Positions 1,468 to 16,098 of a DNA stretch of 64,000 bases are shown here, one piece after another. Positions within the stretch are counted from its first letter, which is position 1. Every line of letters begins with the position of its first letter. This DNA is from an uncultured delta proteobacterium (lineage in GTDB: Bacteria > Desulfobacterota > RBG-13-43-22), in assembly GCA_963711835.1 (NCBI GenBank), contig CAVQFQ010000015.1:32001-96000 (forward strand), given 5' to 3'. Made by a program: the position numbers and the translations under genes. The notes beneath the pieces were generated by a model. That model was given only the letters and a program-made list of their open reading frames with translations, ran no database searches and had not been told where the DNA came from.

Positions 1468-2169
1468 ATGTTGAACCTAAAAGACGTCAATTGTTTCTAT
1501 GGCAAGAGCCACGTCCTGCACAATACCAACCTGGAGGTCCGGGAGACAGAGTTGGCCGGGCTGGTAGGGAGAAACGGGGTGGGTAAGAGTACCACCTTAA
1601 AGTCAATCATGGGAATCGTTCCACCTAAAAGCGGAACGATCACCCTGAACGGAACTACCCTGACCAGTTTGCCGGCTTATCAAATACCCCGCCAGGGCAT
1701 TGCCTATGTTCCCCAGGGCCGGCATCTGTTCCCCAAACTGACGGTCATGGAAAATTTAAAGATTCCGATTGTTCAAGGACCCCTGGATCAGGACAAGCTG
1801 GAGGAAGTCTTTGACTATTTTCCCCGTTTAAAGGAACGGGTCAAACAGAAGGCTGGTACCCTCTCCGGCGGGGAACAGCAGATGCTGGCTGTGGGACGGG
1901 CCCTGATCACCAAGCCCAAGCTGATTCTGCTCGACGAACCTACCGAGGGCTTGATGCCCCTGCTGGTCCAGTTAATTAGCCGGACCATCCAGGCCATTAA
2001 TCAAAAAGGCATGGCCATCCTGCTGGTGGAACAAAACCTGAAGATCCTCAAAGATGTCTGTCACCGGATTTATATCATGGAAAAAGGGTCCGTTGTTTAT
2101 GAGGGGACCCCGGCCCAACTGGAAGCCGCTCCCGAGATCCAGGAACGTTACCTGAGTGTTAAGGTTTAG
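1468..2169 (+). CDS. livF: Branched-chain amino acid ABC ATPase (LivF-like)
   Basis: GRNGVGKST, LSGGEQQML, LLDEPTEGL, VEQN. Confidence 0.92.
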   Translation: MLNLKDVNCFYGKSHVLHNTNLEVRETELAGLVGRNGVGKSTTLKSIMGIVPPKSGTITLNGTTLTSLPAYQIPRQGIAYVPQGRHLFPKLTVMENLKIPIVQGPLDQDKLEEVFDYFPRLKERVKQKAGTLSGGEQQMLAVGRALITKPKLILLDEPTEGLMPLLVQLISRTIQAINQKGMAILLVEQNLKILKDVCHRIYIMEKGSVVYEGTPAQLEAAPEIQERYLSVKV

Positions 2170-2968
2170 ATGCTTTCCCACAGCGCCGCTGACCTTTTGT
2201 TATCTAATCCTCGGGGTTCTGCTGGGTACCGGGCTGGAGGTCTCAGGCGCCGGGAAAAACCCGGAAACCCTCCGCTTTGAAGGCCGGCAGATAACCGTCA
2301 GAAGGGACTCCCTGACCCGTTTGCCCTTGACGATGCGGGCCGCGGGTGCCCCGCTGCTGGAAATCAAAGGGTTTGCCAAGCTCACCCGAAACCAAATCAC
2401 CTTGACCGGCCCCCTGCTGGCAAAAAAATATAAAAAATTTCTTCAAATAGAACCGGATGAGCTCCGTCTGAAAGCGGCCGAGCGTGTCGGCGGGACCTGG
2501 TACGTCAGCTATTGGCAGACCGTTAAGGGATGGATTATCTATGAATCCTCCCTGGGATTTTCCATTGACCCACACGGAAAAATTCTTTCTCTTGGGGCTC
2601 TGCTCTACCCCCAGGTAGCCCTCCCGGAAGGGACCCGCATCTCACGCGATCAGGCCCTAAAAATCGGGGCAGGCCAGGTTCCGGACTTCAAGAAACAGGC
2701 CTATACCCTGCTGGCGGAGAACATCCTGGTCTATCCCGTCAGAACCCCCCAAGCCATCCGCTATTTCAAGGTCTATGCCTTTAATTTTTTTCCTCAGAAG
2801 GCCCTGCATCCCGCTTCCGTGGTCGGCGGCTATGCCGTATTCGTGGATACCCAAACCGGCGGGGTGATTCACCGGGAAACCCTTTTTAAGCCCTTGGGTT
2901 GTTGCGTTCCCGAGAACTGGGTGCCCCCCAAGCCGGAGGAATTGTACAAAGGGATTTTTGGAAACTGA
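2156..2968 (+). CDS. Secreted hypothetical protein resembling the FTP+PepSY propeptide of M4/M36 peptidases, with no catalytic domain; C-terminal GCC motif
   Basis: Hydrophobic N-terminus; YVSYWQTVKGWIIY (FTP-like); ISRDQALKIG...VFVDTQTGGVI (PepSY-like); start uncertain (GTG 2156, or ATG 2170 with a 1-nt indel). Confidence 0.6.
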   Translation: MLRFRCFPTAPLTFCYLILGVLLGTGLEVSGAGKNPETLRFEGRQITVRRDSLTRLPLTMRAAGAPLLEIKGFAKLTRNQITLTGPLLAKKYKKFLQIEPDELRLKAAERVGGTWYVSYWQTVKGWIIYESSLGFSIDPHGKILSLGALLYPQVALPEGTRISRDQALKIGAGQVPDFKKQAYTLLAENILVYPVRTPQAIRYFKVYAFNFFPQKALHPASVVGGYAVFVDTQTGGVIHRETLFKPLGCCVPENWVPPKPEELYKGIFGN

Positions 2969-3499
2969 ATGACTACGAAAGGCCTCCTGGCCCTACTCCT
3001 ATCTTTGAGTCTTGTTTTTTTAACCTGCTGTGGCGGAAAATCGGAGACACCCAAATTGCCCGGCCTGGGCACCCGGGCGCCCGGCTTCACCTGCCTGGAT
3101 CTGAAAGGGCGGCCCTGGTCCCTGGATCATCAAACCCGCGGAAAAGTCATTCTCCTCCGTTTCTGGGCCGATTGGTGTCCCTATTGCCGCTTTGAGATGC
3201 CGGTCATTGAAAAATACTACCGGCTCCTGAAGGACCAAGGGTTCGAGGTCCTGGCCGTGAACGTCAAGCAAAGTGCTCAGGTGGCCGAGGCCTTTATCGG
3301 CCAGATGGACCTGACCTTTCCGGTTCTCCTGGACCCCGAGGGCCGGATGGCCGAAAGCTACGGAGTCTATGCCATCCCCACCAATTTCCTGATCGATGGG
3401 CAAGGCAAAATCAGGGAGATCCTGGTCGGGGAGGTATTTCTGGAAGAAAAAATATTGAAGGATGTGCTGAAGACCTATTTTACGGGAATAGGTTCCTGA
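2969..3499 (+). CDS. TlpA/ResA-family thiol-disulfide oxidoreductase, probable lipoprotein
   Basis: FWADWCPYC active site, IPTNFLID cis-Pro loop, signal peptide ending LTCC. Confidence 0.9.
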   Translation: MTTKGLLALLLSLSLVFLTCCGGKSETPKLPGLGTRAPGFTCLDLKGRPWSLDHQTRGKVILLRFWADWCPYCRFEMPVIEKYYRLLKDQGFEVLAVNVKQSAQVAEAFIGQMDLTFPVLLDPEGRMAESYGVYAIPTNFLIDGQGKIREILVGEVFLEEKILKDVLKTYFTGIGS

Positions 3500-3598
3500 A
3501 CCATCTTTTGGTTTGACAAGAAAAAGGAATTAAGATTAATTTTAAAGATAGTCCCTAAGATAGGGTAGTATATCCGCAATCACGTTACGTTACAACCT

Positions 3599-3663
3599 GG
3601 TCATTCCGGACTTGATCCGGAATCCAGTCTTTCAACCTGGATTCCCGCTTTCGCGGGTATGAC
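3599..3663. repeat. REP-like palindromic doublet (GTCATTCC...GGAATCCAG / CTGGATTCCCGC...ATGAC)
   Basis: Two hairpins in inverted orientation; a related unit lies inside 17324-17460. Confidence 0.75.
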
Positions 3664-3755
3664 GGCAGAGGGACACTGCAAAGAGAACAGGGAAACACTA
3701 CATTAGGTGATCCTCAAACCGGAAGGGTAGCCTTTTAAAATAATAAAACACCCTA

Positions 3756-3810
3756 AAGGGCTTCGTGGGTTTTGATTTCAAGGATTGTCCGAAAGGGGAT
3801 CCGAAGCCTT
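3756..3810 (-). repeat. Fragment (one inner arm) of the nested-IR MITE family seen at 37132 and 40678
   Basis: GGGTTTTGATTTCAAGGATTGTCCGAAAGGG matches the reverse complement of about 40870-40922. Confidence 0.7.
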
Positions 3811-3876
3811 CGACGACTGGAAAGGATTTGAAAAAAATTTCACCTAAAAAGGCGGCCTCTTATTTACACCAATTTT

Positions 3877-5022
3877 TTGATCTCTTCCCTTAAAAATATC
3901 TTGGCTAATCCCGTCAGGAGCCTGGTGGTCATCCTCTGTCTGGTCGCCCTCCTCACGCCTTTTCTAACGGCCATGGCCATTTCGGAAGGGATTAAAGAAG
4001 AAACCCGACTGCTGCTTGACAGCGGGGCCGACATTTATGTCACCCGGGACCAATTCGGTTCCAACGCACCGATTCCGCTTTCATTTGCAAAACCCTTGGC
4101 GGCCTTGCCCGGTGTGGTCGAGGTGATTCCCCGGGTCACCGGCCGCACCTACCTGAAGAAATTTTTTCTCGCCGTCCTCGGCATTTCCCCTACGCATCTG
4201 CCGGCATCGATTCGCCTTGTTCAGGGCCGGACTTTTCAGGGGCCGGGTGAGGTTATTCTGGGAGAAAATCTGGCCGGCCTATTCGCGATAAAACCGGGGG
4301 ATCGCTTCTATTTATCCAGAAACCCGGGGCAGACCTTTCAGGTGTCGGGCATCTTCAGCTCCGCCATCCAGCCCTGGAAGTCCGATTTGCTCATCCTTTC
4401 CTTTGAAGACGCCGCCCGCCTCTTCCAACTTCCCAACTTGGCCAGCGATTTCCTGATCACCTGCCGTCCGGGTTATGAAATCCCCTTGGCTGAGCGGATA
4501 CTCCAGATCAAGGAACTGAATCCTGAAGGATCTCCGCCCTTGCGGGTCCAGACCAGGTCCTTAATTAAAAGCTATATGCTCAAGGGATTTGACGCCAGGG
4601 CCGGTGTCTTTAGCGGGTTTTATACCCTGGCTTTTTTTCTGGCTTTCCCCATCCTTCTGGTAACCACCGGCCTGGGTTCGGCCGGCAGAAAACAGGAAAT
4701 CGGGATCGCCAAGGCCCTGGGCTGGCAGACCCAGGAGGTCTTGATTCTGGTGGGGTTTGAGAATGTGCTGCTGGCCTTGTTCAGCCTTCCCTGGCTGCTC
4801 TTATTCTCCCAGCTCTGGCTTAAAGCCGGTAACGGTTACCTCCTTAATCGCTTTTTTATCGCCAACTGGGCTATCCTGCCTCCCTTTTCCGTGCCGGCCC
4901 AGACCTTTCCCGTGCCTTTTTTACTGACCCTGTTTCTGACTCTGGTATTGACCCTGGTGGGAAGCCTGTATTCAACCTGGAGGATGGCCGTTGTTCCGCC
5001 TCATCAGGCCATGCATAATTAA
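3877..5022 (+). CDS. FtsX/MacB-like ABC permease 1
   Basis: N-terminal TM, large periplasmic domain, RKQEIGIAKALGW motif, three C-terminal TMs. Confidence 0.88.
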   Translation: MISSLKNILANPVRSLVVILCLVALLTPFLTAMAISEGIKEETRLLLDSGADIYVTRDQFGSNAPIPLSFAKPLAALPGVVEVIPRVTGRTYLKKFFLAVLGISPTHLPASIRLVQGRTFQGPGEVILGENLAGLFAIKPGDRFYLSRNPGQTFQVSGIFSSAIQPWKSDLLILSFEDAARLFQLPNLASDFLITCRPGYEIPLAERILQIKELNPEGSPPLRVQTRSLIKSYMLKGFDARAGVFSGFYTLAFFLAFPILLVTTGLGSAGRKQEIGIAKALGWQTQEVLILVGFENVLLALFSLPWLLLFSQLWLKAGNGYLLNRFFIANWAILPPFSVPAQTFPVPFLLTLFLTLVLTLVGSLYSTWRMAVVPPHQAMHN

Positions 5023-5155
5023 AGAAGCAGCCGTTTTTTATTTTTGAAAGGAGATCCATCTTGACTTGAAAAAAACAATCCTGGCCACGGCAATCGTCTT
5101 GTCCCTCTTCCGGGTAGTTACAATTATGAGACAGTCAATAAGAGGAAGTGATACC

Positions 5156-5596
5156 ATGGCGGCAAAAAAAATTGTTTTCGGCATTTTCCTAATCAGTTTA
5201 TCTATGGTTATGGCCGGTCTCGTCCAGGCCGGAGAGGTCAAACGCTGTATCGTTTGCGGAATGGACGTCTCCAAGTATCCCCACACCCGCTATGTGGTCA
5301 CGACGACGGAGAGGGAGGAATTCATTACCTGCGGCGCCCAGTGCGGTCTCACCCTCCATTTGCGTTTTAAAGATAAATTCAAGTCCGCCCTGGCCTCCGA
5401 TCTTTTAAGCAACCGCCCGGTCGATGCCCGGAAGGCCTTTTATGTGTTTAAAAGCTCGGTGATCACCGATATGGCCCCGGGTTTCATCGTTTTTTCAGTC
5501 AGGAAGAACGCGGAAAATTTTGCCGGGGGTTTTGGAGGCCAGGTAGTAACCTATGACGAAGCCTTGGCCATTTGGAAAAAGCAAGTGCAGCAGTGA
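5156..5596 (+). CDS. NosL-like periplasmic metal-binding protein 1
   Basis: Signal peptide, CIVCGM, CGAQC, DARKAFYV, MAPGFIVF...AENFAGGFGG; ATG 5156 follows GAGGA. Confidence 0.8.
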   Translation: MAAKKIVFGIFLISLSMVMAGLVQAGEVKRCIVCGMDVSKYPHTRYVVTTTEREEFITCGAQCGLTLHLRFKDKFKSALASDLLSNRPVDARKAFYVFKSSVITDMAPGFIVFSVRKNAENFAGGFGGQVVTYDEALAIWKKQVQQ

Positions 5597-5602
5597 TAAC
5601 CT

Positions 5603-5959
5603 ATGTTCCGACCTGAAAAAACAGTACTCCTGGTCCTGGGGGTCTTAATCCTTCTGACCATGACCCTGATGGTCTGGGATCAGCAAACCTGGAAAACCCG
5701 TAAAACCGAAGAATTCGTCCTTTTCCAAAAGGGCTTGTCCGGATTGGGAATGGGGGCTATTGCCAGCCCCATCTGGAATTTCATCAATTACGACCCCCGG
5801 GCCATGGCCGTAGATGATTCGATTACCTGGCCCATTCCAGGCGGGTATTCCTACGGTCCGGATCGAACCGCCACCATAACCTATTTTGAGGAGCGGCCCA
5901 GGAATGAGTGGGTTTTACTTCAAAAAACGTGGCCGGAGGCGGCGAAAGCAGCCCCTTGA
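5603..5959 (+). CDS. Membrane-anchored hypothetical protein
   Basis: N-terminal TM, GLGMG, YDPR and PIPGG motifs; tightly coupled within the operon. Confidence 0.75.
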   Translation: MFRPEKTVLLVLGVLILLTMTLMVWDQQTWKTRKTEEFVLFQKGLSGLGMGAIASPIWNFINYDPRAMAVDDSITWPIPGGYSYGPDRTATITYFEERPRNEWVLLQKTWPEAAKAAP

Positions 5960-7149
5960 GCTTAAGGGAGGAGCAGGCCATTTCCCGTTTCACTAACTTT
6001 ATCGAGGCCGCCTGCGGCCGCCTGATCCGGAATTGGGAGCGAAGCCTCACCTTGACCCTCTGCCTGGTGGCCATCCTGTTTCCGTTCCTTACCGCCTTGG
6101 CCGTTTCAGAAGGGCTCCGCCAGCAGGCCGATATGTCCCTGCTGTACGGGGCCGACCTTTACCTGAATCGGGATTATTATGGAGGGTCCGGTCCCATTGC
6201 TGAAACCGACCTCCTGCTGTTAAAACAGTCTGCCTTCGGTGATCGCCTCCAGGTTCAGGGCCGGGTTTTAGGAAGAACCTATTTTGTTAATCGTCTGGTG
6301 GCCGTAGCCGGCCTGGACCGGCCTCCCGACAGCCTTTCTCCGCTGCTGCAGGCCGGGCGGATCTTTAAAAACCCGGGTGAGGTGGTCATCGGGCAGCGAC
6401 TGGCTCAACGGTTTAATCTCCAACCCGGGGTCAAGTTCGCCCTTACTGCCAATCCTGGAAAACTTTTTACGCTGGTTGGTCTTCTTACCCCCCTGGGACT
6501 TTGGGACTCCGATCTGTTGCTCATGTCCTTATCGGATGCCCAGGCCTTCTTCGGGATGGAAGGCCTGCTTTCGGAAATCCAGATTCGGACCAGCGCATCG
6601 AGCTTCCGGGAGTCAGGAGAAAATCTCCTCGTGGAAAAGGCCCGTTCGGAACTGCCTGTCAGCCCTCCCCTTCGTTCCCACACTCGGACGGAAGCCGGAC
6701 AACACCTTTCCCAAGGCTTCGGTTTCCGTGGAGGCATCTATCTTGTTTTTTATATACTGGCTTGGGTCCTGGCCGTTCCCGCCCTCCTTATTTCCAGCGG
6801 ACTGGGCACCCCGGTCACGGCCCAGGAGGTCGGGTTGATGCAGGCCCTGGGCTGGACCCGGAGACAAATTCTGAGATTGGCGGCCCTGGAATACGCCATC
6901 CTTAGTCTTTCAGCCACTGCCCTGGCCACCCTGGCTTCCATGGCCTGGATGAAATTAACCAACGGCTTTCTCCTGGCGCAATTCCTGATCGCCGAAGTGG
7001 GTTTGGTCCCGGGTTTTGACGTCCCGACACGTTATCTTCCCCTGTGGAGCCTGGCCGGTCTTTTCTTGGCGCTACTGACCACTCTGGGGGGAAGTTTCAT
7101 TTTTAACTGGTATTGCTCCCGAAAAGCCCCTTACCAGGCCATGCATTAG
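5956..7149 (+). CDS. FtsX/MacB-like ABC permease 2 (paralogue of 3877-5022)
   Basis: PFLTALAVSEG, GRTYF and QEVGLMQALGW shared with permease 1; TTG 5956 overlaps the upstream TGA. Confidence 0.88.
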   Translation: MSLREEQAISRFTNFIEAACGRLIRNWERSLTLTLCLVAILFPFLTALAVSEGLRQQADMSLLYGADLYLNRDYYGGSGPIAETDLLLLKQSAFGDRLQVQGRVLGRTYFVNRLVAVAGLDRPPDSLSPLLQAGRIFKNPGEVVIGQRLAQRFNLQPGVKFALTANPGKLFTLVGLLTPLGLWDSDLLLMSLSDAQAFFGMEGLLSEIQIRTSASSFRESGENLLVEKARSELPVSPPLRSHTRTEAGQHLSQGFGFRGGIYLVFYILAWVLAVPALLISSGLGTPVTAQEVGLMQALGWTRRQILRLAALEYAILSLSATALATLASMAWMKLTNGFLLAQFLIAEVGLVPGFDVPTRYLPLWSLAGLFLALLTTLGGSFIFNWYCSRKAPYQAMH

Positions 7150-7176
7150 TCTCTTAACAAGGATACGCTGCCTAAC

Positions 7177-7866
7177 ATGGAACCAATTCTTCAGACCCGC
7201 CATCTCAGTAAATATTATAATGCCGGTAAATCAACGGAAGTCCGGGCCCTGGAGGATATCAATCTGATCATCCCGGCAAACGTCTTGTCGGTTCTGTACG
7301 GTCCCTCAGGTTCGGGCAAGTCCACTCTACTGGCCCTCTTGGGCACCCTGGAACGGCCTACGAGCGGAGAAATTTGCCTCCAGGGCACCGACATCACCCA
7401 ATACTCCGATGTGGGCCTGTCCCGCCTTCGGAGAAAGACCTTCGGCTTTGTTTTTCAATCCTTCCAGTTGATACCCCGTTTGCCGGCCTGGGAAAATGTG
7501 GCCTACCCCTTGATCCCGGTTGGGATAGGCCACCGGGATCGTCTCAACCGGGCTGCTCACTTGTTGGGCCAATTGGGCTTGGCCGATCGGATTCATCATA
7601 CCCCGGAGGAACTGAGCGGCGGGGAGCAGCAGCGGGTGGCCATCGCCCGGGCCCTGATCAATGATCCGGAAATCCTGATCGCTGATGAACCCACCTCCAA
7701 TATAGACGCCGAGGCCGTTGAAACCCTCTTAGGCATCCTGAATGATTTGAAACAAAATGGGAAGACGATCCTCATTGCCACCCATGACCCGGTCTTTCAG
7801 GATCTGGCTGAAGCCCTTTTTTATCTGAAAAGAGGTACATTGCAGGAGACGATGCATAGGGTCTAA
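7177..7866 (+). CDS. LolD/MacB-type ABC ATPase
   Basis: GPSGSGKST, FGFVFQSFQL, LSGGEQQRVAIARAL, ADEPT. Confidence 0.93.
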   Translation: MEPILQTRHLSKYYNAGKSTEVRALEDINLIIPANVLSVLYGPSGSGKSTLLALLGTLERPTSGEICLQGTDITQYSDVGLSRLRRKTFGFVFQSFQLIPRLPAWENVAYPLIPVGIGHRDRLNRAAHLLGQLGLADRIHHTPEELSGGEQQRVAIARALINDPEILIADEPTSNIDAEAVETLLGILNDLKQNGKTILIATHDPVFQDLAEALFYLKRGTLQETMHRV

Positions 7867-7873
7867 GCAAGAC

Positions 7874-8152
7874 CATTTGATATTTTTTCTAAAGTCTTGA
7901 TGATATGGTGTTGGAGGGTCTTATTTTTTGGGTTGTCCACCCCAAAGCCATGAGTCCCGCCTGGCGGGACAGGCCACCACCCAAGCTGGAAATGAGCGTT
8001 GGTGAATGCCCTGCTCTCACTCAAACTTAGCTATTCGGGCCGGATTGGGGGCTCTTAGTCACCCTTTGGACAATTCAAAAAAATAAGACCCCCCAACGCC
8101 TGTCATTTGGAAAGATGGAGACAATTTCTCAGACTAAGTGTGATAGAATCTA
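7874..8152 (+). mobile_element. MITE-like element with ~34 bp inverted repeats at 7907-7940 and 8067-8100
   Basis: GGTGTTGGAGGGTCTTATTTTTTGGGTTGTCCA ... TGGACAATTCAAAAAAATAAGACCCCCCAACGCC; an inverted homologue lies at 9638-9935. Confidence 0.75.
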
Positions 8153-8158
8153 AACGCT

Positions 8159-9193
8159 ATGATCCTTAATGTCTTCAGCATCACGGAAATCTTCATCGGT
8201 CTTCTCACCCTCGGGCTTACGGCCTGGGCCGGAATACACTCCTTCCGTCTTTACCTGCGCTGGAGGAAGAGGACCACCCCGGAGGAGCAGGCCCTCCTGG
8301 AAGACCGATCCTATTTGATGCTCTCGGTGGCCGTGGTGGTTCTGGTTATCCGGCTTATCAACTGGCCCCTGTTTTATCTGACCCTCCAGAGTTTCATCCC
8401 CCAGGTGAACGGGGCCATGTGCATCTTCGGAGTGACCCAGGTCAGGGAGCTATTGACCCGTTTTCTGGAGTTCATGAAACCTTTAGGGGTTTTCTTGATC
8501 GGCGCCTGGCTCCTGATGCATCACTTGGATCGGGCGACCCAAACCGGGCCGTTGCTGGGCCGGAAGCTCCTGTTCCTGTCAATACTATCGGTCATTATCC
8601 TGGTCGAAGCGGCCGGAGAAGTGGTCCTTTTTTTCACCCTTTCGCCCAGCGTTTTGGTTTCCTGTTGTACCACCGTCACGGATATCCTGGACCGGCCTTC
8701 CTCCACGGTTCCGCAATCCCTCTTGGGAGCCGGGTATAAGACCCTGCTGGAAACCGCTTTTTTTGCCCTGACCGTTTTCCTGATCGGGCTGACCGCCTTT
8801 TTAGCCTGGGTGAAAAAATGGGATCCCTGGCCGAAAGGCGGGATCCTGTTCCTGACCGGCCTGGCCCTTCTGGCGTCCCTTAATGCCCTGCTTTTTCTTC
8901 TGGTGCACATCGAAGGCTTCGCTCCCCGTTTCATGGGGCTTCCTTTTCATCACTGCCTCTATTGTCTCTGGCAGTATGTGCCGGATTCGATCGTCCTCTT
9001 CCTGCTCTTTATCCTGGGGACCATGGCCCCCGGCTGGGCCTGGATTCTGGCCTGGACCGGCCGCACAGGAGAAGCCCGGGCCTATATGCCCCGGTACATG
9101 CGGTCCCTTTTTTCCCTGGCCGCCCTGAGCCTGGCCGCCTCCGTCGTCATGATCCTGCTGCATCTTTATTTTTCGTCTCCAGGGAAGCTATGA
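8159..9193 (+). CDS. Polytopic membrane protein with GAMC, SCC and HHCLYC motifs
   Basis: About 8 hydrophobic segments; clustered Cys/His motifs in loops. Confidence 0.85.
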   Translation: MILNVFSITEIFIGLLTLGLTAWAGIHSFRLYLRWRKRTTPEEQALLEDRSYLMLSVAVVVLVIRLINWPLFYLTLQSFIPQVNGAMCIFGVTQVRELLTRFLEFMKPLGVFLIGAWLLMHHLDRATQTGPLLGRKLLFLSILSVIILVEAAGEVVLFFTLSPSVLVSCCTTVTDILDRPSSTVPQSLLGAGYKTLLETAFFALTVFLIGLTAFLAWVKKWDPWPKGGILFLTGLALLASLNALLFLLVHIEGFAPRFMGLPFHHCLYCLWQYVPDSIVLFLLFILGTMAPGWAWILAWTGRTGEARAYMPRYMRSLFSLAALSLAASVVMILLHLYFSSPGKL

Positions 9194-9639
9194 ATAGAAA
9201 AAAGATGATTTGGGGAGCAGTTCTCTTTGCAGCGGTAATCGGGATTGCCCTCTGGGGGAGCCTGTCTCGGGTGGAAAACCAAGACCGGGTGACTGCGGAG
9301 CGGTGTGATTTTGACGGCACCTTGCTTCGGACTCCCTACCGGGTTGAAATCATCCGGACCGACCGGCAGAAAAAAAAGTTCTGCTCCCTTTATTGTGCGG
9401 CCCAGTGGCATCGGCTAAACCCCGGGGTGGCGGCCGAAATCCTGGTGGCGGATGAAACCTCCGGCAAAACCATCGATTCCCGGCAGGCCGTCTATGTCCG
9501 CAGCCGGGTCATCTCGGTCCCGGAGGTGAAAAATGACCTCCATGCCTTCGCCGGAATGGAAGAGGCCCAGATTCATGCCCGGCAATACCAGGGCCGGATC
9601 GTCCCAAATCCCTTTTCGATGAAAAGCCCGGGCGAATAG
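9190..9639 (+). CDS. Membrane-anchored NosL-like protein 2
   Basis: ATGA overlap with the upstream stop; N-terminal TM; CDFDG, FCSLYC, DETSGKTIDSRQAVYV, HAFA...ARQYQG. Confidence 0.78.
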   Translation: MNRKKMIWGAVLFAAVIGIALWGSLSRVENQDRVTAERCDFDGTLLRTPYRVEIIRTDRQKKKFCSLYCAAQWHRLNPGVAAEILVADETSGKTIDSRQAVYVRSRVISVPEVKNDLHAFAGMEEAQIHARQYQGRIVPNPFSMKSPGE

Positions 9640-9935
9640 ATTCTCACAACTTTACCCTGAGAATTTATTTCTGACTTTCCAAAATTAGGTGTAGGGGGCC
9701 TTATTTTTTATGTTGTCCAAAGGGTAACTAAGAGCCCCTAGTCCGGCCCGAATAACTAAGTTTAGTTTATAGCAGGGCATTCACCCCAGCCCATTTCCAG
9801 CCTGGGTGTAGGCCTGCTGCCAAAACACTATCCGATTTTGGCCCGGCAAAGAAGCTTACGGCTCGGGGGTGGACAACTTAAAAAATAAGGCCCCCCTACA
9901 CCATTTCATCAGAACTTTAAAAAAAAATTCAAATA
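9638..9935 (-). mobile_element. MITE-like element, inverted copy of 7874-8152 (IR-bounded core 9688-9902)
   Basis: GGTGTAGGGGGCCTTATTTTTTATGTTGTCCA ... TGGACAACTTAAAAAATAAGGCCCCCCTACACC; internal GGTGAATGCCC and GGGCCGGA motifs on the minus strand. Confidence 0.75.
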
Positions 9936-9998
9936 TCTTTGGTTAGGTTTTTGAATGGGATCTTTCGGGAATCATTTGATTTGAAGGGATAAAAAATA

Positions 9999-11057
9999 GT
10001 GGAAACCCAACCTGACAAAAAATGGGTCTTTTTCGGCTGTCCCCTGGACTGTGATGAGCGTTACGAGGCCATTGAAGAGAAGCGGACCATAGAAAAAAAA
10101 GAAGGGAGGATTGAAGACCCCTATGAAGGAATAATGGAAATCATCCGCCGGGAGGTCGATCCAACCCTCTGGATTGAGAAAGGGTCTCTGTCTGTACCCG
10201 GCCGACTGCTGCCCTTCCCTCCTGTTGAAGCCCGGGAAAACATTTCCACCGCAGAAGCGGTGGCCTTCCTGGATCGGGACGGCTGCCGGGATTATGCCGA
10301 CCAGGTGGGGACCTTCATGGCCAGGGAGATCTTACCCGACCTTCCCTGCCTCCTGGCGGTCGATCATTCCTTGACCGGCGGGGCCTATCGCCAATTATCC
10401 GAAAACTGTCATCCGGAAGAAATTTCCCTGATCGTCCTGGACTCGCATACCGATGCCCTGCCCATGGACCTGCTGGCCGGGATCATCCAGTATGATCTGG
10501 AAACCAATCCCCAGACCCTCTATGATCCGGACGATCCCTTTATCCGGAACCGGTTTGATTCCTATAATGCCAGCTCTTTTCTCAACCACCTTCTCGAAAA
10601 CGGGTCCATCAAGCCCCGGAATCTTTTTCTCCTCGGTATCAGCGACTATCCCCCCAAACAGGCCTTCCGCAACAAGGACCTGAGGGTCAAGCGCTACAGG
10701 GATCATTTCCTCAAGCTTAAAGACAGGGGCGTGACCCTCCTGACCAAAAGCGACCTGGTCCTCAACACTTCCAAGGTTAAGAGTGTCCTGAAACAGATCA
10801 AGACTCCCCTCCTTTATGTCTCCATTGACCTGGACATCGGGGCCGGCAATGCCCTGCAGGGGGTGCGCTTCCTGGACCGCCAGGGCCTCAATGAGCCGCA
10901 GCTTTTTCGGGTCGTGGGCTATCTGAGGGACTTGTTGGGTAGAGGGATGAAATTAGCCGGGATGGACCTGACCGAAATCAATGCCCGCCAAGCAGGCCAA
11001 GATCAAACCTACCGGATTGCCGCCGATATCGTTAAAAAGCTTCTTTGGGGAGACTAA
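9999..11057 (+). CDS. Arginase/ureohydrolase-family protein
   Basis: DHS, LDSHTD and SIDLD metal-ligand motifs, DLTEIN. Confidence 0.8.
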   Translation: METQPDKKWVFFGCPLDCDERYEAIEEKRTIEKKEGRIEDPYEGIMEIIRREVDPTLWIEKGSLSVPGRLLPFPPVEARENISTAEAVAFLDRDGCRDYADQVGTFMAREILPDLPCLLAVDHSLTGGAYRQLSENCHPEEISLIVLDSHTDALPMDLLAGIIQYDLETNPQTLYDPDDPFIRNRFDSYNASSFLNHLLENGSIKPRNLFLLGISDYPPKQAFRNKDLRVKRYRDHFLKLKDRGVTLLTKSDLVLNTSKVKSVLKQIKTPLLYVSIDLDIGAGNALQGVRFLDRQGLNEPQLFRVVGYLRDLLGRGMKLAGMDLTEINARQAGQDQTYRIAADIVKKLLWGD

Positions 11058-11416: not shown

Positions 11417-13201
11417 ATGAATACACGTCAGGATTTGCGCAATTTAGCCATCATTGCCCATGTGGATCACGGCAAGACCACTTTGGTGGATGCCATGCTC
11501 TGGCAGAGCGGTGTCTTCCGGGAAAACCAGCAGGTAGCCGAGCGGGTCATGGACAGCCTGGACCTGGAGCGCGAAAAAGGCATCACCATCATGGCCAAGA
11601 ATACGGCCGTCGTATATCGAGGGGTAAAAATAAATATCGTCGACACGCCCGGTCATGCCGACTTCGGCGGGGAGGTGGAACGGACCCTGAACATGGTGGA
11701 CGGGGTCCTGCTTTTAGTCGATGCCACAGAAGGTCCTCTGCCGCAAACCCGCTTTGTCCTGGGCAAGGCCCTGGAAAAAGGACTTCCTCCCATTGTGGTC
11801 ATCAATAAAATCGACCGCCCTGACCGCCGCATCAACGCCGTTCTGGACGAAATTTACGACCTCTTTATCGATCTGGAAGCCAGTGAAGACCAGCTTGACT
11901 TCCCGGTCCTTTATACCAATGCCCGGGCCGGGATCGCCTTGAACGATCCGGCCGGACAGGGCAACGACCTGGTCCCTCTCTTTGAAGCCATCTTGGAGTC
12001 TGTTCCGGCCCCGGACTGCGACCCGGAAGCCCCGTTGCAGTTTTTGATCACCAACCTCGATTACAGCGACTATGTGGGGCGGATTGCCGTGGGCAAGGTG
12101 GTCAGCGGTCAATTGCGGCCCCGTCAGGAAGTAGCCCTTCTCAAAGAAGGAAAATTAGCCGGTCTGGCCCTTCTCAGCCAGATTTATACCTATGAAGGGC
12201 TTACCCGGAAGGAGCAGGACCTCATCGAGGCCGGGGATATCGCCGCTGTGGCCGGGGTGGCCGAGGCCTTTATCGGCGACACCCTAGGAGATCCCTTGGA
12301 TCCCAGACCTCTACCCACGATTACCGTGGAAGAACCCACCCTTTCCATGATCTTCTCCGTCAATACCTCACCCCTGGCCGGCAAGGAAGGCCGCCTCCTG
12401 ACTTCCCGCCATATTAAGGAACGCCTGGACAAAGAGCTGCTCTATAATGTCAGCATCGGGGTCGAAGAAGCGGAACATCGGGATTCGTTTAAAGTCAACG
12501 CCCGCGGGGAACTGCAACTGGCGGTGCTGGTGGAAATGATGCGCCGGGAGGGTTTTGAACTTTCTCTTTCAAAACCCATAATAATTACCCGTGAAATGGA
12601 AGGCCGGCTCATGGAACCTCTGGAACTGGCGGTGGTGGATATCCCGGAACAGTATGTGGGGGTGGTCAGCGAGAAGTTGAGCGCCCGCCGGGGGCGGATG
12701 ACCAAGATAATCAATCACGGCTCCGGCCGGGTGCGCTTGGAATTCGAGATCCCTTCCCGGGGACTGATCGGCTTACGAAGCCAGTTTCTGACCGATACCC
12801 GGGGCACCGGGCTGTTTAACGCCCTGGTGACCGGCTTCACGCCCTATGCCGGCGCCATCCCTTCCCGGCCAAACGGGGTCCTGGTTTCCGACCGTGCCGG
12901 CAAGGCCGTGGCCTATGCCATTTTTCACCTCCAGCCCCGGGGCACCATCTTTGTCAATCCCGGAGACCCGGTCTATGCCGGTCTGATCGTCGGTGAAAAT
13001 TCGCGGCCTGAAGACCTAAGGGTAAACATCACCAAGGAAAAGAAACTGACCAATATCCGGGCCGCCAACACCGACGAGGCCCTGCGCCTGGTTCCCCCGC
13101 GCCGCTTTACCCTGGAACAGGCCATGGAATATATCAACGACGATGAACAGGTCGAAGTCACCCCCCAGTCCATCCGCCTGCGAAAAATGAAGACCCGTTA
13201 A
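11417..13201 (+). CDS. typA: Translational GTPase TypA/BipA
   Basis: [17 protein letters not shown]-like [30 protein letters not shown]-terminal [11 protein letters not shown]. Confidence 0.97.
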
Positions 13202-13336
13202 AGTGACAGCCGCGCAACTACCCATTTCATTTTCAATTCGACGCCTCTGAAGAGGACACCCCCCAAGATCTCCAATGCCTTCCTGCACCCTAATCTTTGT
13301 TGACATATTGATGTCTCTTATGGTATGTCTTTATGT

Positions 13337-13576
13337 ATGAGAACAACGGTTAGAATAAAGGACGATCTTCTTCGGCGGGCAAAAAAACGCGCCACCGATG
13401 AAGGACGCACCCTCACGTCGTTGATCGAAGATGGGCTGACTCTCATGCTGACCAAATCGAAGGGCAACCGAAGGAAGCGGGTTAAGTTGCCTGTTTCTAA
13501 AGCTTCCGGTGGGGTTCTTCCAGGGGTTGACCTTAACCGATCCGCTGACCTGGAAGAGGTCATGAATAGACCGTGA
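13337..13576 (+). CDS. vapB: VapB-like RHH antitoxin
   Basis: MRTTVRIKDDLLRRAK RHH start, GVDL tail; overlaps the PIN gene; upstream TTGACA with palindrome GACATATTGATGTC. Confidence 0.85.
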   Translation: MRTTVRIKDDLLRRAKKRATDEGRTLTSLIEDGLTLMLTKSKGNRRKRVKLPVSKASGGVLPGVDLNRSADLEEVMNRP

Positions 13577-13998
13577 TTCTTCCTGATGTCAATATCCTGG
13601 TCCAGGCCTTCCGATCCGATGCTTCCCATCATACGCTCTGCCGAAATTGGCTCGATGGCGTAGTCAACGGCGAAGCGCGTTACGGGTTGGCCCCCCAGGT
13701 TTTAAGCGGTGTAATCCGCATTACCACTCATCCCAAGGTGTTTGCCAAACCGAGCAACCTGGATGAGGTGCTCGAGTTTTGTGAAATCTTGTTGAATCAA
13801 CCTCACTGTATGGTTATCCAACCGGGCGAGCGGCATTGGGAAATATTTGCCCGCCTTTGCCTCGAAGCGGACGCCCGCGGCAACCTGGTGCCGGATGCCT
13901 GGCTGGCGGCGCTGGCCATCGAGTCAGGCTGTGAATGGGTTACCCTCGATCGTGATTATGCCAGATTCCCGGGTCTTCACTGGCGCCTGCCCACCTAA
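13573..13998 (+). CDS. vapC: VapC PIN-domain toxin
   Basis: PDVNILV, GNLVPDAWLAALAIE, TLDRDYARFPGL. Confidence 0.92.
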   Translation: MILPDVNILVQAFRSDASHHTLCRNWLDGVVNGEARYGLAPQVLSGVIRITTHPKVFAKPSNLDEVLEFCEILLNQPHCMVIQPGERHWEIFARLCLEADARGNLVPDAWLAALAIESGCEWVTLDRDYARFPGLHWRLPT

Positions 13999-14139
13999 AA
14001 CCTACTTCACTCAGTAACTGCGTCTGCCAGCAGGATTATCAGTCCTGGCAGAAAAAAAAGAACCATCTGCTAAAATGTGTAAGGGAAAGGCTTAAGTTAG
14101 GAGGTCACACCGGGACAACTGAACGCTCTCTTTAAAAGC

Positions 14140-14751
14140 ATGGATTTCGTCAACAATAACTTTCTAGACAATGAGAAAATGGGCAAAAAAGAGTTTCAGG
14201 TTTTCTTCAACATCTATCAACAGCTCGGGTTGGCCTGGGAATTTTTAGGCTTGCAGTGCAAGCACTGGGATGGATACAAAAAAACGAGGGATAAGAAGGA
14301 AGCCTGCAAAATATGCGGAAAAGTCAAAGGGGCCGATGGCTTCCATATCCTGCTACCCAAAAAGGGGCCCAAAAAATTAGGAGTGAAGTTGAAACCCAAT
14401 TCCAAAAAAACTTTTGAAACCCAAAAAGATGCGGAGATCGTTAATGATACAATTGATTTTTATGGGGCTTTGGTAAACGTGGATGTACACAACTCCTATA
14501 AATCGAGCGCATTCGGAAAAGGGATTAATATGGCTGCGGAGAGGATCGTTAACATAAAAGAAAATAACGTCGAATGTCATATTGACGACCATCTTATTCA
14601 TATAAGACTACATGATAAGGATAGGAGGCCTGGAGGAAAAAGATACGGTGGGTTCCCATGGGAGATAAGAAGGAAGGATTTGAAGCATTTCCCAGTTATT
14701 TTTGATTTTGATGAAAAATATAGATTTTTGGGGCTGACGATTTTAAAGTAA
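14140..14751 (+). CDS. Hypothetical protein, AT-rich, possible Zn-binding CKH...CKIC motif
   Basis: 203 aa ORF with composition clearly more AT-rich than the flanks. Confidence 0.7.
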   Translation: MDFVNNNFLDNEKMGKKEFQVFFNIYQQLGLAWEFLGLQCKHWDGYKKTRDKKEACKICGKVKGADGFHILLPKKGPKKLGVKLKPNSKKTFETQKDAEIVNDTIDFYGALVNVDVHNSYKSSAFGKGINMAAERIVNIKENNVECHIDDHLIHIRLHDKDRRPGGKRYGGFPWEIRRKDLKHFPVIFDFDEKYRFLGLTILK

Positions 14752-14860
14752 TTTGCCTCCAATGCCCATAATGGCAGATAACAGAGTGCTTGAGGTTAAC
14801 ACCCAAAGGTTTCATCTTTTTTTTGTTTTAATTATTCAATAATCCTAATGGGAGGAGAAA

Positions 14861-15097
14861 ATGAGCAAAACAGCAACTATTAAAGAGGAGAAGATCCTTG
14901 CTGATTTTGGAAGACTCTCAAAAAAACGTAAAAAAGAGGTAGCTGACTTTGTTACCTATCTCAAGGTAAAAGAGGAACTCGAAGCAACAAAAGAGATTAT
15001 TAAGGATAAAGATTTCTTAGCCAGTATCATGAGAGGCGACGAGGATTTTAGGGTGGGCCGGGTCAAAAAGTGGTCTGAGGTTAGAGAAGATGTATGA
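14861..15097 (+). CDS. Putative antitoxin (DUF2281-like)
   Basis: KKEVADFVTYL motif; RBS GGAGG; overlaps the RelE gene. Confidence 0.7.
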   Translation: MSKTATIKEEKILADFGRLSKKRKKEVADFVTYLKVKEELEATKEIIKDKDFLASIMRGDEDFRVGRVKKWSEVREDV

Positions 15098-15353
15098 AGT
15101 CCTTGTCTCCCACGAGGCTGACAAATACTATAAAAAACAGAATAGAGATACAAAGCAAAGGATAAACAAGTGTATCGATAATCTCAGCCGAGAGCCGCTT
15201 TTCGGTCCTCATATCAAAAAGTTGCACGGCGAACTCGAAGGGAAACACCGATATGAGGTCGGTGGTATCAGAATGGTTTACGAAGTTAACACCAAATTTA
15301 AGACTGTAGAAATAAAGGCGATTAGAAATCGCGGCGATGTTTATAAAAGATAG
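15090..15353 (+). CDS. RelE/ParE-family toxin
   Basis: IKKLHGELEGKHRYEVGGIRMVYEV...NRGDVYK. Confidence 0.85.
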   Translation: MYEVLVSHEADKYYKKQNRDTKQRINKCIDNLSREPLFGPHIKKLHGELEGKHRYEVGGIRMVYEVNTKFKTVEIKAIRNRGDVYKR

Positions 15354-15564
15354 ATTTTTCCTGCCCGCACCGACAGATAACACCAGATTAGCGTCTGCAC
15401 CCTTCGGAAAATCCCGATCTTCATTGTTGATATTCCTCGGACAGATATTAGGATTATTTCCCGAGCCCTTCCTTCTCCAAATGACACCTTCTCCAAAAAC
15501 AGTTGACAAAATCATAAATGCTATATAATCTGAATATACGAATTTCAGATTAGGAGAGGATCGT

Positions 15565-15834
15565 ATGATAACTCAGTTACGAAACAGGTCGCAGGTAACT
15601 TTACCGAGTGAAATCGTGAAAAAAATGAGATTGCAGGAAGGTGATAATCTGGATATTGCTTTGGAGGACGACAAAATCATTATCAAACCCGTTCTGGTGA
15701 TAGATAGATCTCAGTCCTGGTTTTGGTCTAAGAAATGGCAGGAGATGGAAAAGGAAGCCGATAATGATATTAAGCAGGGCAGAGTCCAGAAAGCCAAAAA
15801 CGTTAAAGAATTAATACAGAAGTTGGGCTCATAA
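15565..15834 (+). CDS. AbrB/MazE/SpoVT-family antitoxin
   Basis: SQVTLPSEIVKKMRLQEGD; QSWFWSKKWQ; upstream TTGACA...TATAAT. Confidence 0.85.
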   Translation: MITQLRNRSQVTLPSEIVKKMRLQEGDNLDIALEDDKIIIKPVLVIDRSQSWFWSKKWQEMEKEADNDIKQGRVQKAKNVKELIQKLGS

Positions 15835-15837
15835 GGC

Positions 15838-16098
15838 ATGGAATTCAAATTTACTGCCCGGTTTAAAAAATCCTATAAAAAGCTTGCTAAAGATGACCAA
15901 CAGACAACTCAAAAGAAACTCGCCTTGATGAGCAACAATCCTCACCATCCTTCCTTGAGAAATAAAAAGGTTCAAGGGACCGACAGGATCTTTGAGTGCA
16001 GTATCACCCTGTCGATTCGGATGACCTGGGAGTACGAAAACGAAGCGATACTCCTGCGCGTTGTCGGAAACCATGATGACGTTCTGAAAAACCCATAA
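15838..16098 (+). CDS. RelE/YafQ-like toxin
   Basis: FKKSYKKL, NPHHPSLRNKKVQG, VGNHD. Confidence 0.82.
   Translation: MEFKFTARFKKSYKKLAKDDQQTTQKKLALMSNNPHHPSLRNKKVQGTDRIFECSITLSIRMTWEYENEAILLRVVGNHDDVLKNP

Follow-up and report, generated by a model that had tools for sequence, protein, structure and literature searches.

In the NosDFY-NosL system (PMC8457098, PMC13685413; PDB 7og7, 7osf), NosL is a Cu(I) chaperone with three essential Cu ligands, and an ATP-binding cassette (ABC) motor moves periplasmic partners and does not pump; ATP is used to take Cu from NosL and to pass it on (PMC13685413). This report concerns a gene cassette of an uncultured delta proteobacterium (Desulfobacterota, lineage RBG-13-43-22; assembly GCA_963711835.1, contig CAVQFQ010000015.1, positions 32,001–96,000). 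The 64,000-nucleotide stretch that was analysed is termed the window, and positions are counted from its first letter. The cassette consists of seven genes (g3–g9), is conserved, and represents an undescribed variation on the NosL-plus-ABC copper machinery, copper being the likely metal. The original prediction had joined two preceding genes, g1 and g2, with it into one nine-gene system. The g3–g9 unit stands; g1 belongs to a neighboring operon.

All nine co-oriented open reading frames and all the Cys motifs that had been listed for them are present in the translations. Both go beyond chance: relatives conserve the motifs, and the same order of genes is found repeatedly.

Comparison with described systems

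Compared with NosDFY-NosL, the cassette has no NosZ, no NosD and no permease of the NosY type (ABC-2), and its motor is of the FtsX/LolC type. It adds an eight-helix Met/Cys/His protein (g8) and a small anchored protein (g5), and it has two unlike NosL domains (g4 and g9), one of which is without the Cu ligands. The absence of nosZ, first claimed for the window, extends to the whole assembly (3.9 Mb, 89% complete), where no match to TIGR04244 or to PF18764 (nos_propeller) is found; the best NosD score in the genome is 24 bits (cut-off 300), far from the locus. Families were assigned here and below with the profile cut-offs of Pfam and NCBIfam. A canonical nos accessory locus was rejected, as there is no nosZ, no NosD over the cut-off, and the permeases are of the FtsX type. 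Other settings of NosL have been reported: one Parageobacillus has NosL and NosDFY without a NosZ, in a different arrangement (PMC13068155), and orphan NosL proteins change in proteomes (PMC6242987, PMC11349517). A MacB-type transporter is mentioned for clade III nosZ clusters (PMC13685413).

LolCDE, MacAB-TolC and FtsEX (PMC5985334) resemble the cassette in their FtsX-family permeases and LolD-like ATPase, and LolC/LolE, like g3 and g6, are two paralogous permeases. ABC systems of this superfamily (type VII, MacB-type) do periplasmic work without a pore (PMC5985334). Both g3 (positions 3877–5022, forward strand, as are g1–g9 and the liv and arginase-family genes beside them; start uncertain, TTG 3877 or ATT 3862) and g6 (5908–7149, true start likely near 5980) match Pfam FtsX; g7 (7177–7866) is a LolD/MacB/FtsE-like ABC ATPase, and the set conforms to the type VII ABC superfamily. 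The two permeases are paralogue types 1 and 2, g6 being 37% identical to g3, and their nearest solved relatives are LolC, YtrF and LolF. The cassette nevertheless scores far below the LolC/E, LolD, MacB and FtsE cut-offs: the permeases give 18 and 12 bits (LolC/E cut-off 362) and g7 gives 199 bits (LolD 308). It is without a LolA, MacA or EnvC partner, its partners being proteins of metal-binding type. An identity with LolCDE was rejected on the equivalog scores, and the cassette is not the sole copy in the genome, as true LolC/E is present on another contig (C6, 410 bits). The independence from a canonical nos or lol locus that had been predicted is thus upheld, with nosZ and NosD not found and the Lol scores below cut-off.

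It is very unlikely that the ABC genes encode a dedicated Lol-like extractor that takes NosL lipoproteins, or some other partner linked to lipid, out of the inner membrane, with g8 a separate metal sensor or buffer. The solved relatives of the permeases would fit such an extractor, as would the unlinked state of the g8 and ABC genes in four genomes and the lipobox-like motif of some g9 orthologues. It is opposed by the low Lol scores and the true LolC/E elsewhere; in addition, g4 and g9 here have no lipobox by eye, and no LolA-like gene is found among the scanned neighbors.

The permease pair is whole only in the window and in one other locus (L015); four contigs of the same sub-branch are cut upstream, and the remaining loci have one permease. 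In a quick tree with long branches, g3 groups with the first permease of L015, and g6 with its second and with those of L004, L006 and L008. A LolC/LolE-like heterodimer is likely in this sub-branch only.

The small protein g5 (5603–5959) is predicted to be anchored once, at its N-terminus; its Pro/aromatic tail is conserved, it contains no Cys or His, and it belongs to no known family in Pfam or NCBIfam. A comparison of g5-type proteins with the small proteins of the sister clade described below gave no evidence of homology (probability 14%); they are positional equivalents only.

A third system, the iron-limitation system FetMP-FetABCDEF of Campylobacter jejuni (PMC10783030), is alike in plan: it has an eight-transmembrane, Cys-bearing membrane protein, two paralogous permeases, one ATPase and thioredoxin(s). 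However, g8 shows no DUF2318 or YHS match, and the cassette has NosL domains instead. P19/FetP (PF10634) gives no match in the genome, and no FTR1 permease is among the scanned neighbors. A Fet identity was rejected because FetP/P19 is absent and g8 has no Pfam match.

The cassette had been put forward as an undescribed system, and no description of it was found in full-text searches that mostly left subscription papers aside, so that a passing mention is possible.

The membrane protein g8 and the NosL pair

The g3–g9 cassette is one member of a widespread cassette whose core family, that of g8 (8159–9193), is unnamed. Homologues of g8 were found at 17 close loci, in 53 of 301 genomes of the phylum, as 405 proteins in a word-indexed search and as 1,229 clusters at 50% identity. 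The g8 sequence has no Pfam or NCBIfam match over cut-off, and a profile search of PDB sequences gives none at E 1. Analysed DNA stretches are labelled L, sampled genomes G (G000 being the window's own genome) and contigs C. The 58 g8 loci comprise the 17 close loci, 39 phylum-sample places (picked by score and contig span; 40 fetched, one a duplicate), a paralogue in the own genome and the window. Left out of the rows were L053 (the same stretch as L017), L022 (without g8) and one partial NosL at the start of L004. Trees were made in quick mode, have long branches and were used for grouping only; that of g8 splits the family into a 34-row sister clade and the 24-row clade that holds the window.

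Gene content upstream of g8 was counted at the 48 loci with at least 3.4 kb of upstream DNA. FtsX is present at 41, NosL at 39, the small anchored protein at 36, TlpA at 13 and g1 at 4 (two FtsX matches in L019 are one frameshifted gene). FtsX, small protein and NosL stand together at 33 loci, so that the expected synteny around g8 homologues is borne out. The wider expectation, that an FtsX pair, NosL and TlpA co-occur, holds for NosL; the pair is confined to one sub-branch, and TlpA is present at about a quarter of the loci.

An AlphaFold2 model of g8, made from an 8-row alignment, has eight long helices and low-confidence Cys loops. With this model Foldseek gives no match at E 0.001, and the best VIA-align score (Z 13.5 over 146 residues) is to generic four-helix bundles. 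The motifs GAMC, SCC and HHCLYC lie in three loops. These loops and both termini are poor in Lys/Arg (0.03–0.06 per residue in the motif loops), and the alternate loops are rich (0.19–0.32). Because of this alternation, the Met/Cys motif loops are predicted to be on the periplasmic face.

The conservation of Cys and His that had been anticipated is seen, and extends to Met: M87, C88, C169, C170 and C266 are present in 58/58 loci, H264 in 56 and C269 in 55. In a set of 134 full-length distant rows C88 never varies, M87 is found in 132, and position 269 is Cys in 85, Asp in 40 and Glu in 7. Such a mixture is more in keeping with binding of a metal than with a redox CxxC.

A thiol-disulphide relay of the DsbB/DsbD kind, in which g8 exchanges electrons with TlpA and Cys-rich periplasmic proteins and the NosL domains are zinc scaffolds, is quite unlikely. 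Consistent with it, four or five conserved Cys of g8 are predicted to face outward, a TlpA gene adjoins 13/48 loci, and there are the NosL-cytochrome c fusions described below. But the second Cys of the CxxC is replaced by Asp or Glu in 47/134 rows while Met87 and His264 stay, no conserved Cys is found within a g8 helix, Pfam and NCBIfam give no DsbB/DsbD/VKOR match, and 35/48 loci are without TlpA. A haem protein was rejected, since no His is conserved within the helices (H121 in 22/58, H335 in 25/58). An internal duplication of the g8 halves is not supported (hhalign probability 9%).

The Cu(I) ligands of S. denitrificans NosL are Cys62, Met64 and Met145, each of them essential, and its Zn ligands are Cys59, Cys88 and Asp92; the NosL fold is common to the organomercury lyase MerB (PMC8457098). 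Of the two NosL-like proteins claimed in the window, g4 is firmly so and g9 marginally. The g4 sequence (5156–5596; the open reading frame opens at 5066) matches Pfam NosL with 45 bits (cut-off 24), aligns with the S. denitrificans structure (7og7) and contains the motifs CIVCGM and CGAQC. At the six metal positions it reads CCMCCM: Cys59, Cys62, Met64, Cys88 and Met145 are kept and Asp92 is changed to Cys, so that the 3Cys:1Asp zinc site is not kept. Among 94 NosL domains at the analysed loci, 49 read CCMCCM and 21 more read CCMDDM, which also keeps the Cu ligands. The protein is likely soluble and periplasmic (signal peptide by eye; no lipobox by eye or pattern). It is NosL-family and Cu-ligand-competent, and is predicted to bind Cu(I).

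The g9 protein (9190–9639, read from ATG 9190) is a membrane-anchored, degenerate NosL-fold domain with the motifs CDFDG and FCSLYC. NosL is detected only weakly (E 0.013, below the Pfam cut-off). It reads CDTCCE, and close relatives CDxCCH/E; thus all three Cu ligands (Cys62, Met64, Met145) are lost, and a Cys/Asp/Cys/Cys set is kept at the zinc-side positions. A g9-type domain is joined to the g8 C-terminus in 5 of 150 listed representatives, which points to g9 as a partner of g8. These data suggest to us that g4 is a mobile carrier, and g9 an adaptor that is tethered and serves g8.

Domains of the g9 type are also fused to g1 (L004) and to an NMT1-type substrate-binding domain in four loci (L006:2810, L008:3615, L014:1995, L015:10995). 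NosL is fused to a monohaem cytochrome c (CXXCH) in nine cassette loci (L004, L009, L010, L011, L015, L016, L018, L019, L086), the window not being among them. Further fusions of the NosL fold are with a MetA-pathway barrel-like domain (L086:6000) and with the small anchored protein (L020:7481).

Copper as the likely cargo

The cassette had been read as a metal machine, probably for copper. A copper cargo is likely; it is well supported for the family and thinly for the window's clade. Within the fetched stretches of the 40 phylum-sample loci, CusA/B, multicopper oxidase, YtkA or SCO-like genes occur at 18, in 10 of 20 families, identified through representatives (the first count was 20, from which L060 and L092 were taken out; L083 is weak). 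The rate expected for a 20-kb stretch of the own genome is about 1.6%. Multicopper oxidase is found in 23/53 genomes with g8 and 44/248 others, and the NosZ propeller in 6/53 and 7/248; these are kin genomes with genome size uncontrolled, so that significance is overstated. A catalase control (9/53 and 64/248) shows no excess. Three genomes have a strong NosZ-propeller match no more than 13 kb from g8. In four genomes a lone g8 gene lies between a run of three multicopper-oxidase-like genes and CusBA, with the NosL, small protein, FtsX and ATPase genes on other contigs (L079, L080, L082, L070).

The own genome has a second, sister-clade cassette core on contig C16 (L021:12230-18358), which encodes the small protein, FtsX, the ATPase and the eight-helix protein, and no NosL. 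This paralogue is found between CusA/YtkA genes, which both read as frameshifted, and a gene on the opposite strand for a 1398-aa protein with Cu-oxidase (Cu-oxidase_2) and Fn3 domains. No match for this g8 paralogue was found in a plasmid collection. An isolated NosL pair (CCMCCM and CCMDDM) beside a methionine sulphoxide reductase-like gene on contig C4 (L022:9641-10689) is probably the pair that the C16 copy lacks.

By analogy with NosDFY and with type VII ABCs, we consider it somewhat probable that g3–g9 makes up a periplasmic Cu(I) relay that has a type VII ABC motor and works independently of the Nos system. NosL (g4) would be the mobile carrier that likely brings or removes Cu(I), and g8 with the tethered g9 would hold it on an outward-facing Met/Cys/His site. 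The FtsX-FtsX-ATPase motor with g5 may drive the hand-over by an ATP-powered change of shape and not through a pore. TlpA (g2) is likely to keep Cys sites reduced in both units, the cassette and the operon in which it lies (the host operon). Candidate clients are a haem-copper oxidase, a multicopper-oxidase-like protein or CusCBA efflux; the own genome has a haem-copper oxidase, which from its neighbors reads as cbb3-type. The direction may be supply to enzymes or to efflux, since both kinds of neighbor occur. Gene fusion and gene order suggest physical contact among the parts.

Several observations weigh against a copper relay in the window. All 18 copper-flanked sample loci are in the sister clade, and the window's clade has copper neighbors (CusBA) at two of 24 loci (L007, L009); for this reason copper is held to be only likely here. 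Thirteen of the 17 closest loci carry methyltransferase-operon pieces or TlpA instead, and 25/53 genomes with g8, the own included, have neither Cu-oxidase_3 nor a NosZ-propeller match. The change of Asp92 to Cys alters the g4 site relative to the studied NosL, and the periplasmic part of the permeases has no conserved Cys, His or Met.

The host operon and the setting of the cassette

The propeptide-like nature claimed for g1 (2156–2968) is confirmed. Its predicted fold is that of an FTP+PepSY propeptide, according to Atlas neighbors and a model with a predicted local distance difference test (pLDDT) value of 87. Foldseek matches YpeB, the vibriolysin and fungalysin propeptides and YycI (PDB 3nqz, 4k90, 5boi, 2o3o; E 1.5e-9 to 2e-4), and no Pfam or NCBIfam match is over cut-off. 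In contrast to the M4/M36 metalloproteases whose propeptides it resembles, g1 stands alone, without a protease domain or HExxH. It has an invariant Cys-Cys end (GCC in the window) and is encoded behind a liv-type importer. Among 120 homologues, searched at lengths 148–473, Cys-Cys is present in 119 and HExxH in none, and an M4/M36 protease was rejected.

Eleven of 21 genomes of the class have g1, and two of 21 the g5-type small protein of the window's clade. The g1 gene directly follows livF in all ten other class genomes that carry it, and also in G296. Thus g1 belongs to a liv-ABC/corrinoid-methyltransferase operon and not to the cassette; a g1-bearing operon with no cassette of this type found occurs in 9 of the 11 class genomes, as searched. 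In G296 (contig C31; L112:8891-11028) the g1 homologue with Cys-Cys is followed by genes for a coenzyme A (CoA) ligase and an acyl-CoA pathway, so that g1 is linked more tightly to the importer than to the methyltransferase.

The g1 operons contain a flavin adenine dinucleotide (FAD) oxidase, a CCG protein, the liv ABC and, except in G296, an MtaA/CmuA methyltransferase with a corrinoid protein; most have the RACo activator and an arginase-like gene. The fuller order is GntR, aldehyde dehydrogenase, FAD oxidase, CCG/FeS protein, liv-type ABC, g1, optional TlpA, MtaA/CmuA-type methyltransferase, corrinoid protein, RACo, second methyltransferase and arginase-like enzyme. Such operons are seen in L111:1388-19267, L109, L110, L113 and L119–L123. 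On the own contig (C15), upstream of the window (L117), GntR, aldehyde dehydrogenase, FAD oxidase, CCG/FeS protein and a periplasmic binding protein are encoded, and the methyltransferase part is on contig C25. The operon looks like one for uptake and demethylation of a methylated compound, and is apparently unstudied.

The g2 gene (2969–3499) encodes a TlpA/ResA-like thioredoxin with WCPYC, likely a lipoprotein (lipobox by eye). It matches Pfam AhpC-TSA/Redoxin over cut-off, has the WCxxC motif and is below the ResA/TlpA equivalog cut-offs. A TlpA gene follows g1 in some host operons and also borders the cassette where there is no g1. It may be shared between the two units and is probably a host-operon member.

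The host operon of this lineage holds the cassette behind its TlpA gene. In L016–L018 the cassette lies between TlpA and the methyltransferase, and in the window it precedes the arginase-like remnant. In G306 the start of g3 (70% identical) is at a contig end after TlpA; the link to the operon is only likely there, since the two joining contigs do not overlap. Ten loci have the MtaA/CmuA methyltransferase and the arginase-like gene directly downstream of the cassette, and as all are of one clade, they represent one event.

Vicinal Cys-Cys pairs can act as ligands of Hg and As, and g1 carries such a pair. That in this clade the cassette serves the host operon by handling another soft metal, or an organometal(loid), and not copper, is unlikely, though the fold common to NosL and MerB and the link between cassette and operon in two sub-branches (the ten methyltransferase-linked loci; the window and G306) would suit it. 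So would the fusion of g1 with a NosL-fold domain in L004, which argues for some service of the cassette to the operon, in which it may otherwise be a hitch-hiker. On the other hand, the operon is mostly without this cassette in the class, the ten loci reduce to one event, and g4 retains a Met-based Cu(I) site. A more specific form, in which this clade repurposed the type VII ABC metal relay for periplasmic capture of a methylated soft metal or metalloid with the g1 Cys-Cys tail, TlpA, the NosL pair and g8, is highly improbable; it would feed or protect the pathway of liv-ABC and corrinoid methyltransferase by which anaerobic syntrophs remove the methyl group.

The single nine-gene machine, of which g1 and TlpA would be constant parts, is largely refuted and has a very low probability as well. 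The two genes precede the cassette in 4/48 loci, and in L004 g1, fused to NosL, comes after it; these agree with such a machine. But in the other class genomes g1, where present, is always behind livF, and it is absent from the sister-clade loci.

The co-oriented run of genes begins upstream with livM, livG and livF (3–2169), the end of the branched-chain-type importer of the host operon, outside the cassette. It reaches the arginase-family metallohydrolase gene (9999–11057), a remnant of the operon's back half. Three long intergenic gaps (377, 292 and 359 bp) interrupt it, all filled by genome-wide repeats according to blastn; in relatives the corresponding cassette genes abut. The repeats are non-coding families, each with more than 100 blastn matches in the genome. 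One lies at 3600–3808 (126 matches for the g2-g3 gap), and an inverted-repeat element is found at 7875–8155 and, inverted relative to this copy, at 9640–9950; the two copies bracket g8-g9. The gaps show no Rfam match of weight in a riboswitch/sRNA search, and promoter and terminator scans are at chance level. The G+C content is 0.52–0.57 over host and cassette genes, with no sign of recent foreign origin. Farther downstream, a TypA/BipA-like GTPase gene (11417–13201) is followed by short toxin-antitoxin-like gene pairs (13325–16098; PIN-domain, RelE-like and AbrB-like by eye) with a low G+C content of 0.40.

Periplasmic copper supply and buffering by anaerobes in sulphidic habitats are poorly known. 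The cassette is found in about one-sixth of the phylum genomes, and its membrane-protein family, with more than 1,000 clusters, has no family name and no solved relative. Setting g1 apart from the cassette also brings to light another unstudied unit, the conserved operon, apparently for uptake and demethylation, that encodes this Cys-Cys protein of propeptide fold. If the copper reading is true, the cassette would join NosDFY as a second NosL system with an ABC motor, and type VII ABC motors would gain a role in metal trafficking.

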